Positions 2,793-39,789 of a stretch of DNA of 64,000 nt are shown piece after piece; position 1 is the stretch's first letter; every line of letters starts with the position of its first letter. Origin of the DNA: Escherichia phage Ec_Makalu_003; sequence record MN882349.1; one strand, given 5' to 3'. The translations under genes were made by a program, and so were the position numbers. The notes beneath the pieces were generated by a model. The model searched no databases. It saw only the letters and a program-made list of their open reading frames with translations, and was not told where the DNA came from.

Positions 2793-3509
2793 TTACTTGA
2801 GTGTGTGGAATTGGCTATGTTTAGTCTCTCTCACCTTGACAGACCCATCGCGTTTGATATAATAGATCAGTGACTTGAGGGTGTCGTGTACATACGCGTG
2901 CGGGAAACGCTCTGGATACTTCTTCCAATCTGGAGTATTAACGATCCAGTCGAAAATCCACCACGGGCAGGAGTAGTAACCACGACCGCCACCGATCAAG
3001 CAAATGGTCGGACGGAAACCAGTAAGATCACAAAATGAATCAGTGTCATGTGCAGGAGAACGATGCTCTGCTTCGTCAGAGAAAATGTTTGCTACCGGAG
3101 ATTCCACTTTAACTTCCGGTACAACCACAATTTCAACTGGTACTGTGTGTGGTTTGGCTTCTTCTACAACTGTAACTGGTTCTTCTTTTTGTTCTGGTTC
3201 TTTCATTGCTTCAACCAGAGACGGATCAACTTCGTCGAATACCACTTTATCATCTGCGGTGTCTGCTGCCAGAATAAGATCGTTAATACTGGTTCCTTCT
3301 GCCGGAGTTTCTTCTTCCATTTCGGAAGCCAGTTTAGTTAATTCGGTTTCTACGAACTCGATCATGTTCTCTAGTGATAAAGTCTTTTTGACCTTAATAT
3401 CAAATTGTTTTGCGTAGTCAGCTAATTCTGTTTTAGCTGTTTTCTGTGCTTCTTTGTCGTCGGACGCCGCAATAGCGCGGAGTTCTTCGAAATATTCTTT
3501 ATCAAACAT
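2793..3509 (-). CDS. inh: Inh-like prohead core protein (assigned by position)
   Basis: 238 aa acidic protein in the T4 inh slot between hoc and uvsW; sequence-level identity not verified. Confidence 0.5.
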   Translation of the reverse strand: MFDKEYFEELRAIAASDDKEAQKTAKTELADYAKQFDIKVKKTLSLENMIEFVETELTKLASEMEEETPAEGTSINDLILAADTADDKVVFDEVDPSLVEAMKEPEQKEEPVTVVEEAKPHTVPVEIVVVPEVKVESPVANIFSDEAEHRSPAHDTDSFCDLTGFRPTICLIGGGRGYYSCPWWIFDWIVNTPDWKKYPERFPHAYVHDTLKSLIYYIKRDGSVKVRETKHSQFHTLK

Positions 3510-3535
3510 GCTATTCTCCTGATTGGGGGTGTTTG

Positions 3536-3543
3536 TATAAATA
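3536..3543 (+). promoter_or_regulatory. T4-type late promoter TATAAATA upstream of uvsW
   Basis: exact TATAAATA about 40 nt before the uvsW ATG. Confidence 0.5.
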
Positions 3544-3579
3544 TTTGTATACTGTATTTATTGAGTGAGGCTATTCGCT

Positions 3580-5082
3580 ATGCAAGATATTAAAATTCAC
3601 TTTCTGAACTACTCCCATGTTCAAATTGAATGTAGCGATTCAATTTTATTAGAAATGCGAGATTATTTTAGTTTTGAAGTCGAGGGAGCGCGGTTTCAAA
3701 AAAGATTTAAGTATGGCGGATGGGATGGGCGTATTCGTCTATTAGATTACAATGGAAAGTTGCCAATCGGCCTAACTAAAACCGTTGGCATCTTCGCTAA
3801 AAATATGGGTTATTCTGTTTGGGTAGACCCTCGCTTATTCGAGAAAGAACAGGTTACAGAAGAAGAGATCACAAAATGGTGTAACGACTTAGAATTATAT
3901 TCCGGTGCTAACAGGATCACCCCGCATTGGTATCAATCAAAGGCTGTCTTTGAAGGTATTCATCATAAACGCCGTATGTTAGTTTTGCCTACGTCCGCTG
4001 GTAAATCTGCGATTGCTTGTATGTTGTCTCGCTGGTACTTAGAGAACTACGAAGGGAAAGTGCTGATCATCGTTCCTACCACGTCGCTAGTGCTGCAAAT
4101 GCGTGATGATTTTGTTGATTATCGCCAGTTTCCATATGAAGCAATTCATACTATCATGAGCGGTACTAGTAAACACGTAGGTGATCGCCTGATCGTTGTT
4201 AGTACGTGGCAATCAGCATGTAAACAGCCTCGTGAGTGGTTCCAACAATTCGGGATGGTTATTGTTGACGAATGTCACAAGGCCACGGCTAAAAACCTGC
4301 TAAACATCGTTACTGATATGGATCATTGCCAATTTAAGATCGGTATGACTGGTTCCCCTCGTGACGGGAAAGCTAACATGATGCAGTATGTCGGGCTTTT
4401 CGGTGATATTTCTAAGATCGTGAGTATTGACCGCCTGATGGAAGAAGGGCAGGTGACAAAACTGAAAATTAACTGTCTTTTTCTTCGTTATACCGATGAG
4501 GAATGTAGCGCGGTTAAGGGGAGAGAATATGCGGAAGAGATCAAGTATATTACATCTAACCCACGACGTAATAAGTTTGCTTGCAATTTGGCGCTAAAAC
4601 TCGCTAAGAAGGGCGAAAACGTATTCCTGATGTTCCGCAACACTAAGCACGGAAAACTTATGTATGATGCGTTACAGAAGGTACACGACAAGGTTTATTA
4701 TATTGACGGTGGAGTTAAGACAGAAGAACGTGATGAATTTAAGAAAATGGCGGAAGGTGACACTGGCTTAATCTGTGTTGCGTCTTATGGTGTGTTCTCT
4801 ACTGGTGTTTCCATCAAGAACTTGCATCATGTTATTTTCGGTCATCCAGTGAAGGAATCAACTATCGTTCGTCAGAGTATCGGTCGTGCATTGCGTAAAC
4901 ATGGTTCTAAGGATATTGCTACCGTTTGGGATCTTATCGATCATTTGGCGGTGAAGACAAAGAGCAAGAATGCTAAGAAACAGTTTAGCCACCTTAATTA
5001 TGCTCTTAAACATGCCCTTGAAAGAATAAAAATTTACAACACCGATCGATTCGAATATGTCACGAAAACAATCGAGATTTAA
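3580..5082 (+). CDS. uvsW: UvsW DNA helicase (SF2)
   Basis: near-collinear match to recalled T4 UvsW (FSFEV..YGGWDGRIRLLDYN, LPTSAGKS, VDECH, KLKINCLFLRY); ATG 3580 with SD GAGTGAGG; the track start 3565 is a GTG. Confidence 0.9.
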   Translation: MQDIKIHFLNYSHVQIECSDSILLEMRDYFSFEVEGARFQKRFKYGGWDGRIRLLDYNGKLPIGLTKTVGIFAKNMGYSVWVDPRLFEKEQVTEEEITKWCNDLELYSGANRITPHWYQSKAVFEGIHHKRRMLVLPTSAGKSAIACMLSRWYLENYEGKVLIIVPTTSLVLQMRDDFVDYRQFPYEAIHTIMSGTSKHVGDRLIVVSTWQSACKQPREWFQQFGMVIVDECHKATAKNLLNIVTDMDHCQFKIGMTGSPRDGKANMMQYVGLFGDISKIVSIDRLMEEGQVTKLKINCLFLRYTDEECSAVKGREYAEEIKYITSNPRRNKFACNLALKLAKKGENVFLMFRNTKHGKLMYDALQKVHDKVYYIDGGVKTEERDEFKKMAEGDTGLICVASYGVFSTGVSIKNLHHVIFGHPVKESTIVRQSIGRALRKHGSKDIATVWDLIDHLAVKTKSKNAKKQFSHLNYALKHALERIKIYNTDRFEYVTKTIEI

Positions 5083-35058: not shown

Positions 35059-37302
35059 TTACAGTTTGCAAGATGAACATTCGCTAGCGTCTTCCGTACC
35101 ATCAGCACCATCACGCACGTTAGCGTAATACAGTGTCTTGAGGCCGTAATATTGAGCAAACAGCATATCATCTAACACATCAGCAATATCGACTTTACCA
35201 GTCTTATAAGTGCTTGGATCATAGGATGTATTGGAACTGATCGCCTGATCTACAAACTTCTGCATGATCGCTGCCAGTGTCAGATAAGGTTTGTTACCCT
35301 TCTTGATCAGTGTCCAAAGCAGGTCAATAACATCAGCATTATTCTCTACGTTCGGAATAACCTGATTAAATTGCCCTTCTTTCGATCCTTTAACCGATAC
35401 AATCCCGCGAGGCGGTTCTATTCCATTGGTGCTATTAGATACCTGAGAAGACGACTCACAAGGCATCAGCGCCGATAGTGTACTGTTACGAATGCCATAT
35501 TTTTTCAGGTCTTCGCGCAGTTCTTCCCAATCCATTTCATACACCGGGTCAACCAGTTCATCTACTGTCTTTTTGTACCAGTCAATAGGAAGTTCACCGC
35601 GACCATAACGTGTTTCGTGCATCAGTTCGCAAGCGCCCTTCTCTTTTGCTAGCTGCACACTAGCTTTAATCAGAGCATATTGCAAGCGTTCAAACGTTTT
35701 ATGCGTAAACTCGTTAGCGTCTTCATATGTGAAGAAATTATCCGCCAGATATGATGCAAAGTTAGTCACACCAACACCCAGAGAGCGACGTTTTTTGGCT
35801 GTCAGTGCTTGTTCTACAGGATAATCCTGGTAATCTAACAAGTTGTCAAGCGCACGCACCATAACCATAGCGATCCGCTCTACTTCTTCCATATTTTCGA
35901 TATCGAAATTACCTAAAACATATGCTGCCAAAGTACACAGAGCAATTTCGGAGTCATCATGCCCCATTGGTTTAGTAGGCAGTGCAATTTCACAACACAG
36001 GTTAGATTGTTTAATCGGTGCTACATTACGAATAAACGCCCCGTGATTGTTCATGTTGTCTGTGAACGCTGGATAGATTCGACCAGTGTTAAAACGTTCA
36101 ATTGCCACCGCTAAAAACAGGTCTTCGGCTTTAACACGAGTTTTACGAACACTCGGATCTTTTTCCAGTTTTTCATAAAGCTGGCGGAATCCTTCCTCAT
36201 CTCGGAAGTACAGATCCCACAACAAGCCACCCGCAACATCTGGACTAAACAGAGTAATGTAATCACGTTTAAGGAATCGCTCTACCATCAGGTTATTAAT
36301 CTGTACGCCGTAATCAAGATGACGAATGCGGTTATCTTCTACCCCTTTGTTGTTCTTCAACACAATAAGACTTTCAAACTCTAAATGCCACATTGGGTAA
36401 TAGAGAGTCGCCGCCCCGCCACGAATACCGCCTTGTGAGCATGACTTAACGGCAGTCTGAAAATGCTTCCAGAATGGGATAACGCCAGTATGACGAACTT
36501 CACCATGCCCGATCTTAGATCCTTCCGCGCGAATCATACCAGCATTGATACCGATACCAGCACGCTTACTAATATACTTGATGATTGCATTTGCTGTTTC
36601 GTTGATGCCCTGCAATGAGTCATCACTTTCAATCACCACACACGAACTAAATTGTCGTGTTGGAGTACGCACACCAGCCATAATCGGAGTAGGCAGAGAA
36701 ATTTGCTTATTCGCAACAGCATTATAAAAATCAATCACATGTTCGAGTCGATTTTCTGTCTCTTCTTGATGTAAACACATACCGATCAGCATATACGCAA
36801 ATTGCGGTGTTTCAATGATTTTCTTAGTGCTGCGATCCTGAACAAGATATTTCTCTTTTAACTGCATCGCACCAGCATAGGTCATTTTAAAGTCAAGTTT
36901 ATGGTCGATGAATTTCTCCAGATATTCCACTTCTTCACGGGAATACTTTTGCAGAATTTCGCGATCATATTTTCCGGTTGCAATATTACGCTCAATATGG
37001 CTGTAAAAATCAATAGGTTGGAATTGACCGTATACTGATTTACGAAGCGCGAACATTGCAAGGTTACTTGCTACATATTGATAATCAGGCGTTTCTACCG
37101 TGATGTTATCTGCGGCGACCTTAATCAATACTTTCTGGATATCGTTGGTAGACATACCTTCTGTCAGAAGTGGTTCAACCATATCAAACAATTCATATGG
37201 ATCAACGTTATGACCTTCGGCTGCCGCTTCCAGAATTTTCATTACTTTTTCTTTTTCAAACGGAACAGTCAGACCGGAAGACTTAACAACATTTTTAATC
37301 AT
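35059..37302 (-). CDS. nrdA: ribonucleotide reductase large subunit
   Basis: 747 aa; N-terminal ATP-cone-like region and catalytic Cys/Glu-rich core typical of class Ia NrdA. Confidence 0.9.
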   Translation of the reverse strand: MIKNVVKSSGLTVPFEKEKVMKILEAAAEGHNVDPYELFDMVEPLLTEGMSTNDIQKVLIKVAADNITVETPDYQYVASNLAMFALRKSVYGQFQPIDFYSHIERNIATGKYDREILQKYSREEVEYLEKFIDHKLDFKMTYAGAMQLKEKYLVQDRSTKKIIETPQFAYMLIGMCLHQEETENRLEHVIDFYNAVANKQISLPTPIMAGVRTPTRQFSSCVVIESDDSLQGINETANAIIKYISKRAGIGINAGMIRAEGSKIGHGEVRHTGVIPFWKHFQTAVKSCSQGGIRGGAATLYYPMWHLEFESLIVLKNNKGVEDNRIRHLDYGVQINNLMVERFLKRDYITLFSPDVAGGLLWDLYFRDEEGFRQLYEKLEKDPSVRKTRVKAEDLFLAVAIERFNTGRIYPAFTDNMNNHGAFIRNVAPIKQSNLCCEIALPTKPMGHDDSEIALCTLAAYVLGNFDIENMEEVERIAMVMVRALDNLLDYQDYPVEQALTAKKRRSLGVGVTNFASYLADNFFTYEDANEFTHKTFERLQYALIKASVQLAKEKGACELMHETRYGRGELPIDWYKKTVDELVDPVYEMDWEELREDLKKYGIRNSTLSALMPCESSSQVSNSTNGIEPPRGIVSVKGSKEGQFNQVIPNVENNADVIDLLWTLIKKGNKPYLTLAAIMQKFVDQAISSNTSYDPSTYKTGKVDIADVLDDMLFAQYYGLKTLYYANVRDGADGTEDASECSSCKL

Positions 37303-37652: not shown

Positions 37653-38885
37653 TTATACTGCCATTTGAGCGGTGATCGCTGGATGGCTTTGATAGTTGTG
37701 AATTTTAAAGTCTTTCGGAGTTTTTGTCAATACCTCATCTAAAGATTTAAATTCCGGCAACTCAATTGTTGGTTTATCAAACGGAACACGGCTTAACTGT
37801 TCCATCACTTGGTCAAAGTGATTTTTGTAAATGTGAGTATCTCCGCCGGAGAAAATCAGTTCTCCTACTTCGAGATCACACATTTTCGCTATGATGTGAG
37901 TTAACAGCGCATAGCTGGCGACGTTAAAGGGCAAACCCAAAAAGCTGTCTACGCTTCGCTGAAACCACATACAAGACAGTTTACCCTCATTGACATAGAA
38001 TTGCACGAACGGATGACATACACCTAATACAGCATTATGTGTTCCTTGTACGTTCCATGAGTCAATGATGATACGTCGATCCGTTGGATTGTTTTTAATT
38101 TGTTCAATCACGTTTTGTAACTGGTCTTCCCAAATCTTCGGGCGATAGACATATTCTTCATCGTCTTTAGTGCTCGATGTGTCTATGTCCATACTAGCAA
38201 AGATCGTGGTATCCGGTGCTAAAATGTCACCGCCTAGATAATCACTATCAAGCAGATAACCGAAATAACCATCATCTACCCATTCCTGGAATCCCCACAA
38301 GCAATATGCATCATTAACAAAATTAGATTGAGTCTTCCAGTGGTCCGCTACTAAGAATTGATTATATTCAGAATCAAACTCTTCATAACGCATACCACGC
38401 CAGATAGCACATAAACGCTCTTCTGTGTCATTGTTTGGCGTAAAGTCTTCTACCCACGGGTGTTTAAATGTATGTGTATATTTGCTCTTAACGCGCTTAA
38501 TTTTGATTTCACCGTGTGGATGAATCGGTTTGCGTCGCCACGCCATACCATACATATTGCCGACATTATAACCATTGAATCGCAAGGGATTCTTTTCTTT
38601 CATATCAAGACAGTTGCCGCGCCAAATATCAAATGCTTCCTCGTCAAACTTTCCGCGTGTAATTTCCTGTAAGCGACGGCGGTCAAGTGATCCCTCCATA
38701 AACCATAGCAATTCGCCAATTACAGAGGCTGTAGCCATCTTTTTAGTGGTCAGTAATGGGAAACCCTTGCTTAAATCAATTCGCATCTCTGTGCCGAATT
38801 TAGAGAGCGTACCTACCCCCGTGCGGTCTTCACGAGGCCAGCCATTATCAAGAACATCACGCAATAGTTTCAAATATTCTTTCAT
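37653..38885 (-). CDS. td: thymidylate synthase with a large internal insertion
   Basis: DRTGVGT, FPLLTTKK, DRRIIIDSWN, CHPF, LGLPFNVASYALL; 410 aa versus about 286 in T4. Confidence 0.8.
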   Translation of the reverse strand: MKEYLKLLRDVLDNGWPREDRTGVGTLSKFGTEMRIDLSKGFPLLTTKKMATASVIGELLWFMEGSLDRRRLQEITRGKFDEEAFDIWRGNCLDMKEKNPLRFNGYNVGNMYGMAWRRKPIHPHGEIKIKRVKSKYTHTFKHPWVEDFTPNNDTEERLCAIWRGMRYEEFDSEYNQFLVADHWKTQSNFVNDAYCLWGFQEWVDDGYFGYLLDSDYLGGDILAPDTTIFASMDIDTSSTKDDEEYVYRPKIWEDQLQNVIEQIKNNPTDRRIIIDSWNVQGTHNAVLGVCHPFVQFYVNEGKLSCMWFQRSVDSFLGLPFNVASYALLTHIIAKMCDLEVGELIFSGGDTHIYKNHFDQVMEQLSRVPFDKPTIELPEFKSLDEVLTKTPKDFKIHNYQSHPAITAQMAV

Positions 38886-39126
38886 CCCACATCACCTTTT
38901 TCTTATTGATTGCTTTCTTACGCAGTTTTGCTACTGTCTCGTCAATATCGATAAAGACAACGCCACGGTCGAATATAGTAGCAGGTCTTGAGATATCGCT
39001 ATTTTCTTGCACAGGAAGCCATGATGCGCTCGCTTCATCATAGAGATATTGTAAACCGTAATAATCTACGGCTACTGCGTAGTTTTCACTGGTAGCCGTC
39101 CATAATTGAATAATACCGATTTTCAT
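38857..39126 (-). CDS. hypothetical protein, about 89 aa
   Basis: ATG at 39126 coupled (TAATG) to the upstream mini-ORF. Confidence 0.4.
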   Translation of the reverse strand: MKIGIIQLWTATSENYAVAVDYYGLQYLYDEASASWLPVQENSDISRPATIFDRGVVFIDIDETVAKLRKKAINKKKVMWDERIFETIA

Positions 39127-39218
39127 TATTGTTCCCGTCCGCAATGTAAGCACCGACTACCAGCAAACATCAAAGATTCACCACAATGTTTGCACTCATA
39201 ATCTGTAAGAATTTTCAT
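39126..39218 (-). CDS. zinc-ribbon mini-protein, 30 aa
   Basis: MKILTDYECKHCGESLMFAGSRCLHCGREQ; sits between frd and the next ORF. Confidence 0.3.
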   Translation of the reverse strand: MKILTDYECKHCGESLMFAGSRCLHCGREQ

Positions 39219-39219
39219 G

Positions 39220-39789
39220 TTACGCCTTCTTACGTTCTAAAATTTGTTCGCTGATCAGGTAATTATCAAGGAAGTAATTATGTTCTTCTTTGGTTACAAA
39301 GTCAAAATACAATTCCTGAATCATTTCCTTAGAGATACCAACATCATATTCAAATGGATCGTTGACCCCTGATCGTTGAACATACGTTAACACAATACGG
39401 TCCGCAAAGTCAACCGCTTTTTCAATCAGGGAAGGTCCGCCGATAACACTTACCAAACCTTGCGTTTTCTCCAGGACTTTTAACAGATCCTTTAATTCAA
39501 TTCCAGTATACACATTAGGCTGGTCGCCGTTTTTGGCTTTCGGTGTCGGCTTGCTGGCATCGGTACTAATAACCACATTAAGACGACCTTCCAGTGCTTT
39601 AGGGAGACTTTCAAAGGTATTACGTCCCATTACAACCGCCGCAAGATCAACATCTCCCATAGTGCGCATTTTAAAGTTTTCCATGTCCTTTTTGATTGGA
39701 CGACCCCACGGTAAACCGCCTTTAAAACCAAAAGCCCAATTTTCATCTGACATTTTAGTGTCACCAATCGCAAATACACATTGAATCAT
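39220..39789 (-). CDS. frd: dihydrofolate reductase
   Basis: GLPWGRP and VVMGRNTFESLP DHFR motifs. Confidence 0.8.
   Translation of the reverse strand: MIQCVFAIGDTKMSDENWAFGFKGGLPWGRPIKKDMENFKMRTMGDVDLAAVVMGRNTFESLPKALEGRLNVVISTDASKPTPKAKNGDQPNVYTGIELKDLLKVLEKTQGLVSVIGGPSLIEKAVDFADRIVLTYVQRSGVNDPFEYDVGISKEMIQELYFDFVTKEEHNYFLDNYLISEQILERKKA

Follow-up and report, generated by a model that had tools for sequence, protein, structure and literature searches.

We analyzed a 64,000-nucleotide stretch of the genome of Escherichia phage Ec_Makalu_003 (sequence record MN882349.1; hereafter, the window) and found that its thymidylate synthase (TS) gene, td, encodes a TS with a large extra segment at a single site. 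We put the probability at roughly 0.75 that this segment is a truncated, disabled, and lineage-fixed copy of an in-frame homing-endonuclease-like module that has colonized one permissive TS loop, corresponding to residues 100-109 of E. coli ThyA. The evidence comes from the TS core and its insert, from a family of homologous free-standing phage proteins, from full-length versions of the module in other TS genes, and from the sequence changes that distinguish the copy in the window from those versions.

The phage is a member of Krischvirus (RB49-like), with Ec_Makalu_001 as the best match in a megablast search (99% over td), and the neighborhood of td, as seen from the window ORFs and Pfam, is a T4-like nucleotide-metabolism cluster (Table 1). 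Against Pfam PF00303, the Td protein scores 284 bits (cut-off 24.3) in two stretches around the insert, and it scores 283 bits against TIGR03284, for which the threshold is 108. The protein has the TS fold: residues 1-82 and 110-264 of E. coli ThyA align with residues 1-82 and 254-410 of the window Td, respectively, and residues 120-286 of T4 Td (1tis) align with residues 254-410. Columns that are invariant in the TS alignment include R21, E58, W88, Y112, W116, and R117 in the N-terminal part of the core and R270/R271, C290, R310, S311, D313, N321, H351, and Y353 in the C-terminal part. All of the catalytic and binding residues of the E. coli enzyme (R21, E58, Y94, R126/R127, C146, R166, S167, D169, N177, H207, and Y209) are kept in Td, where their counterparts are, in the same order, R21, E58, Y112, R270/R271, C290, R310, S311, D313, N321, H351, and Y353. 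Because all catalytic residues are conserved, TS catalysis by the Krischvirus Td should be intact. Some Krischvirus phages have modified cytosines but lack a known hydroxymethylase homolog (2026 paper, PMC13390438). We considered Td as the missing cytosine-modification enzyme and rejected it, since N321 (window positions 37911..37931, minus strand) is the Asn of dUMP-type enzymes, whereas dCMP enzymes have Asp; Td is thus unlikely to be the missing cytosine hydroxymethylase of Krischvirus.

Table 1. Features of td, its insert, and neighboring genes in the window.
Feature	Position	Strand	Basis or remark
nrdA	35059..37302		td cluster member
DUF4326 gene, 100 aa	37314..37616	minus	E 6.5e-23; between td and nrdA
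td, TS with nested insert	37653..38885	minus	410-aa ORF
TS core, C-terminal part, residues 254-410 and stop	37653..38126	minus	aligns to E. coli ThyA 110-264
Last long strand of insert, residues 245-254, EYVYRPKIWED, back into the TS DQL helix	38124..38153	minus	DSSP on AF2 model
Insert, residues 118-253, about 135 aa, pI 4.7	38127..38534	minus	alignments with E. coli ThyA and other TSs
Stretch matching the free-standing 'HNH endonuclease' profile, Td ~126-240	38166..38510	minus	hmmsearch and hhalign
LDSD ... LAPDTTIF, degenerate D-K-D ... Y-S..T-C.F motif	38193..38252	minus	signature table and hhalign
SEYN, 4-codon indel, polymorphic in Krischvirus, shortened loop	38361..38372	minus	six-Td alignment
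AIWRGMRY, relic of the W..ML.RCY helix; W and R kept, C to Y, Y to E	38385..38408	minus	alignments; model helix 153-170
First long strand of insert, residues 118-130, RKPIHPHGEIKIK	38496..38534	minus	DSSP on AF2 model
TS core, N-terminal part, residues 1-117, last residues GNMYGMAWR	38535..38885	minus	alignment from E. coli ThyA 1-82 onward
98-aa ORF, function not assigned, RB49ORF236c homolog	38857..39153	minus	between frd and td; end overlaps td start by 29 nt
frd	39220..39789		td cluster member

The insert lies between the WRR (YG..WR) motif and the DQL motif of TS, beginning at R118/K119 and ending with KIWE directly before DQL; counted from K119, it covers residues 119-253 (38127..38531). 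Here, 136 residues of Td (118-253) replace 10 residues of E. coli ThyA (100-109), a net gain of about 126 residues; relative to the nearest insert-less phage TS (P0029), 135 residues in the window stand in place of 4. About 18 more extra Td residues are found upstream, before GNMYG, and these are also present in insert-less phage TSs. The reading frame through the insert is continuous and protein homology reaches both junctions. A long td, of either 1233 or 1221 nt, is present in all 58 of the Krischvirus records found by megablast, which rules out an assembly artifact as the source of the insert, and the amino acid identity of the insert across these records is 88-99%.

Much of this had been anticipated by the initial annotation of the window, which described a 410-residue td ORF with canonical TS sequence at both ends, interrupted by an in-frame segment that is absent from E. 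coli ThyA and T4 Td and that has no intein-like boundary residues. The ORF length, the two-part PF00303 match, the alignments, the continuous frame, and inspection of the junction residues bear out each of these points, and the alignments place the added length in one block at one site instead of spreading it over scattered small indels. The dimensions required correction: the size of roughly 115 residues given for the segment was a slight underestimate, and the coordinates assigned to it, 38200-38575, are shifted by ~70 nt and correspond to residues 104-229.

The AF2 model of the window Td has a mean pLDDT of 93.9, with values of 77-98 in the insert, and the AF2 model of the TS of phage phiKp_21, discussed below, has a pLDDT of 92.2. 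In the window model, three helices and two short strands lie between the two long strands that open and close the insert, and these long strands probably pair as a stalk. The RP.I motif within the last strand is kept in nearly all insert-bearing TSs. The insert is thus predicted to be a folded, nested domain of TS, and it is apparently not spliced out.

When searched alone, the insert block has no match in Pfam and a single marginal match in PHROGs, to an 'HNH endonuclease' family. A word-indexed protein search with the insert alone as the query likewise returned nothing; relatives were found when the full-length protein and an exhaustive profile search were used. We found no description of this TS insert in the literature that was searched, the coverage of which was incomplete.

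A tblastn search of the insert against phage genomes yielded, beyond Krischvirus, matches to jumbo-phage TSs, to a CDS of a Vibrio phage, and to free-standing ORFs annotated as 'HNH endonuclease'. The jumbo-phage matches are the 517-residue TSs of UE-S1 (Asteriusvirus) and phiKp_21 (Alcyoneusvirus), with identities of 34-35% and an E-value of 6e-13. The Vibrio phage D181 CDS (VPHD181_0093, positions 1410-2843 of the examined locus) is annotated as 'HNH endonuclease' and is a TS-family protein of 477 residues (PF00303 at 1.9e-47) with the same in-frame insert. The TS core of this protein is unusually divergent, sharing 38% identity with that of the window and having AFRQ in place of WR.

In long TSs, the full-length insert comprises 240-280 residues and has three parts: a beta-rich N-terminal part that ends with PSV.GVGYLG, a core with the pattern W..M.IR(C/V)Y ... 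W.NF.NF ... LDKDYYGS.IYSP.TC.F ... N, and a C-terminal part. All TSs of at least 469 residues with long inserts keep the D-K-D and Y of the core, and most keep the whole signature. At least 80 TS lineages carry this full-length module nested at one and the same position of the enzyme. Because the TS inserts fall mostly into one cluster of the module tree, the tree suggests a lineage of the module that is specialized for the TS site. The UE-S1 insert matches PHROGs family 2081 (3.8e-32) and also families 953 and 374, all of which are named 'HNH endonuclease'.

The free-standing relatives are proteins of 178-272 residues that align end to end with the first two parts of the long insert and consist of nothing more. 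A profile of the TS inserts and a profile of 26 free-standing proteins align with an hhalign probability of 100% and an E-value of 5.4e-44, and an hmmsearch of all window ORFs with the free-standing-protein profile gives Td as the only match (E 3.3e-9). Foldseek, run on a viral library with the whole TS including its insert as the query, recovers the 178-residue KIL3b protein with a TM score of 0.70. The family is large, with 13,732 representative clusters found by exhaustive profile search at E<=1e-3. TS proteins bearing the module at this site make up 59 of the best 148 clusters, and the remainder are small free-standing proteins or larger proteins without a Pfam domain, one of them with an I-HmuI NUMOD-like domain. 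Nine larger proteins of 433-724 residues (P0125, P0128, P0132, P0133, P0135, P0138, P0146, P0165, and P0200) contain one or two copies of the module and otherwise no Pfam domain. KIL1 gp152 and ICP1 gp59 are examples of the family, whose free-standing members are small and basic. Neither the insert, the full-length inserts, nor the free-standing relatives have a meaningful match to any model of Pfam or NCBIfam, HNH models included, and a sequence search of solved structures in the PDB gave no meaningful match for any of the three; we regard weak matches to Get1 and BpuSI as noise.

The free-standing relatives occupy homing-endonuclease-like slots. In Justusliebigvirus, a copy separates nrdA from nrdB, and in Vibrio phage D36, a copy separates the primase gene from that of DNA polymerase. 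A copy adjoins the DNA polymerase gene in ICP1, and KIL1, with as many as 5 copies in a genome, has one between the terminase and portal genes, both of which are annotated as two-piece joins. These proteins are putative nucleases.

Close relatives that differ in the presence of the insert are found in several groups of phages. The metagenomic TS P0024 (552 residues) has a core that is 89% identical to that of the insert-less P0029 (276 residues), the two contigs represent syntenic phages, and P0024 nests inside an insert-less TS clade, although trees alone do not separate gain of the insert from its precise loss. In Asteriusvirus, the insert is present in UE-S1, but the td of PBECO4, 121Q, and some 20 others measures 930 nt. 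Identity between UE-S1 and PBECO4 is 91-99% in the genes that flank td and in its two end portions. Between these ends lies a central tract in UE-S1 of ~1.1 kb, consisting of the insert together with roughly 110 nt on its upstream side and 260 nt on its downstream side, which shares 50-70% identity with PBECO4 and 78-93% identity with Klebsiella phage KP13-7. Gene conversion in which flanking markers are co-converted would be expected to leave this pattern, although the tract could instead have arisen by ordinary homologous recombination that was not driven by an endonuclease. The UE-S1 gene downstream of td also contains about 300 nt (4600-4900 of the examined locus) that are absent from PBECO4 and KP13-7 in a three-way alignment, which represents a local indel.

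Among Alcyoneusvirus phages, the insert is missing from RaK2 and K64-1 and present in KP13-7 and phiKp_21. In Klebsiella phage RCIP0023, the annotation divides td, at a point further downstream, around an 'intron-associated endonuclease 1'. One jumbo-phage genus thus has td in three states: uninterrupted at 930 nt (RaK2), with an in-frame insert at 1554 nt (KP13-7), and split (RCIP0023). The td loci that were compared, in excerpt coordinates, are 802-2759 for RCIP0023, 802-1731 for RaK2, 3001-4554 for KP13-7, and 3001-3930 for PBECO4.

The distribution of full-length TS inserts is therefore sporadic among close relatives in Asteriusvirus, Alcyoneusvirus, and metagenomic phages, whereas the Krischvirus insert is fixed (58/58). 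The presence and absence of the insert within single genera and the imported tract of UE-S1 point to ongoing lateral spread of the full-length form. The initial annotation had proposed, as probable, an accessory domain rather than a mobile element. The first half of this proposal agrees with the folded, nested domain of the AF2 model; the second half, taken as a statement about origin, is not supported, given the homology with a homing-endonuclease-like family, the presence/absence pattern of full-length inserts, and the laterally transferred tract of UE-S1. The annotation had also named other phage Td proteins of equal length as grounds for refutation; only TSs that carry a homologous insert are of this length, which extends the finding and does not undermine it.

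The copy of the module in the window differs from the full-length form in several ways. It lacks both the N-terminal beta domain (ending PSV.GVGY.G) and the C-terminal sub-domain, so that the full architecture of the family is not present. At 14 signature positions, where the family has W R C Y W F D K D Y S C F N, hmmalign gives W - - Y W F D S D L A T F D for the window, such that the polar signature R-C-Y, D-K-D, Y-S..T-C, and N reads - - Y, D-S-D, L-A..T-T, and D; the hhalign alignment, unlike this table, keeps the signature Arg in the window insert. The survivors are two Asp residues and the hydrophobic residues W, W, F, and F. All short-insert TSs (401-418 residues) are degenerate at the signature. 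The helix with the conserved Asn that follows the position of LAPDTTIF is missing or replaced, as the window model has strands at 210-213 and 228-231 and then no helix, whereas the model of P0012 has strands plus a helix at 300-305. The pI of the window insert is 4.7, compared to about 9 for most full-length inserts and free-standing proteins.

Among six Krischvirus genomes, the dN/dS ratio of the insert is 0.14-0.33 in 14 of 15 pairs, with one short comparison at 0.61, and that of the TS core is 0.01-0.03. The truncated form of the insert is common to relatives down to 62% core identity (P0003-P0006). Judged by these substitution ratios, the window insert is evolving under relaxed purifying selection with its hydrophobic core kept.

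An alternative that we consider unlikely, though not negligibly so, is that the Krischvirus insert has been exapted as an accessory domain and is now useful, for example as a protein-protein surface in the phage dNTP-synthesis complex or in the regulation of TS. The dN/dS values of the insert in most pairs are indeed not about 1, but values below 1 are equally explained by avoidance of misfolding of an essential enzyme. The conservation of the truncated architecture through the whole clade is what would be expected of a functional domain, and the presence of the insert in all 58 Krischvirus genomes found and its high-confidence predicted fold fit the same view. On the other hand, the non-synonymous rate of the insert is about 10 times that of the core, a 4-residue indel within it is polymorphic, and the lost polar motifs have not been replaced by a new conserved polar motif; its acidic pI argues against retained DNA binding in particular.

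It is very improbable that descent ran in the reverse direction, with an ancestral TS accessory domain giving rise to the free-standing proteins. The TS inserts do group together for the most part in the module tree, but free-standing and other non-TS members vastly outnumber them among the 13,732 clusters, insert-bearing TSs are nested inside insert-less TS clades, E. coli TS, T4 TS, and all other solved TS structures are without the insert, and members of one genus differ in whether they have it.

Least probable of all, to the point of being scarcely credible, is an intein or intron whose removal after translation or from the mRNA would leave a mature enzyme of normal length: inteins classically occur as in-frame insertions in conserved genes of nucleotide metabolism, and introns are found in td (in T4 and, by annotation, in RCIP0023), but the insert has no Cys/Ser at position 1, no terminal His-Asn, no Cys/Ser/Thr at +1, and no structural match to the Hint fold or to inteins, and the continuous frame and protein homology up to both junctions speak against a group I or group II intron. 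Rfam scans of the td region of the window and of three insert-bearing loci gave no match, but the same type of scan also found nothing in the annotated intron region of RCIP0023, and it is therefore the reading-frame argument that carries weight against an intron.

If the insert is indeed a disabled copy of a homing-endonuclease-like module, its history might be as follows. The full-length element would spread by endonuclease-initiated gene conversion, or homing, while staying in the TS polypeptide, and it would be tolerated owing to its location in a surface loop, with its end strands probably forming a stalk that keeps it clear of the TS core. The element of the Krischvirus lineage would have become fixed, then lost its activity, and then been whittled down. 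The remaining stump may persist either through the rarity of clean removal or through a dependence of TS folding on the insert.

Homing endonuclease genes are generally taken to survive in essential genes only where they are spliced out with an intron or intein, and otherwise to lie between genes. We tentatively propose, with somewhat less than even confidence, that the full-length relatives of the insert exemplify a third strategy, alongside introns and inteins, by which a homing endonuclease can reside inside a conserved metabolic gene, namely as the in-frame and retained part of a bifunctional TS-endonuclease, with the Krischvirus Td as either a fossil end-state or a stump domesticated for some new function. 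The endonuclease-like module is read straight through the TS frame in phages with genomes between 160 kb (T4-like) and 350 kb (jumbo), and, if the bifunctional reading is true, the obligate TS dimer would present two nuclease modules. Should the full-length forms be active, the known strategies of selfish elements would expand, TS would have a natural and well-tolerated domain-insertion site that protein engineers could use, and there would be an explanation for long 'td' genes that are labeled plainly as thymidylate synthase or, wrongly, as 'HNH endonuclease'. For the window itself, an unexplained 135-residue bulge that has been in the RB49 sequence since 2003 becomes a datable molecular fossil.

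The closest published analog of the TS insert appears to be the ShiLan domain, a sporadic insertion in a mycobacteriophage DNA methylase gene (Arsenault, Gosselin and Gogarten 2025, Genes 16:178, PMC11855218). Like the TS insert, the ShiLan domain is neither an intein nor a recognizable intron, has no stops in the host frame, is associated with an HNH endonuclease, and is predicted to be translated into a protruding structure (PMC11855218). It differs in that its HNH endonuclease is out of frame, its in-frame product is only a hairpin-like loop, and its host gene is non-essential (PMC11855218), whereas in TS it is the endonuclease-like module itself that is translated in frame, as a nested and folded domain, into an enzyme of thymidylate synthesis, and the copy in the window has decayed. 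The insert also resembles inteins with homing endonuclease domains in being in frame at one constant position of a conserved gene for nucleotide metabolism, and in showing presence/absence, lateral transfer with flanks, and a cycle of invasion, fixation, and decay. Unlike inteins, it has no Hint splicing domain, splice-junction residues, or structural match, and it apparently stays in the mature protein.

In T4, the free-standing homing endonuclease gene mobE separates nrdA from nrdB (Wilson and Edgell 2009, PMC2790892). Free-standing members of the insert family resemble mobE-type genes in their positions, at nrdA/nrdB, at primase/DNA polymerase, and beside genes annotated as split. They differ from mobE in belonging to another protein family, one with a D-K-D motif and no Pfam HNH match, and the TS module is fused into the host ORF rather than being intergenic. 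The group I intron with I-TevI in T4 td and the split td of RCIP0023, whose endonuclease is known as intron-associated by annotation, involve the same host gene as the insert; td has thus been invaded in T4 and RCIP0023 as well and is therefore a recurrent target of mobile elements. These elements differ from the insert in relying on RNA-level splicing, in having another endonuclease family, and in lying at a site much further downstream in td.

The same region of the TS fold tolerates extra residues in human TS, which has a second eukaryotic insert there, and in L. casei TS, which has a 50-residue insert in the small domain. These loops differ in being short and unrelated to the window insert, and that of L. 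casei presumably lies before the YG.QWR motif, not after it. In nine insert-bearing TSs (P0141, P0143, P0192, P0203, P0209, P0225, P0234, P0253, and P0267), there is a second gap of ~20-50 residues near TS profile position 182, which suggests a further insertion downstream of the first. The same loop in insert-less phage TSs has from 4 to about 33 residues. The insert-less TSs of PBECO4 and RaK2 (309 residues) have an unrelated loop of their own at the site of the insert, of ~40 residues (WREWEDYKFSSSTEEIQELKDKGYKVIDYTGSHGVVMKRTTDQL), which makes the loop a hot spot of length variation in general.
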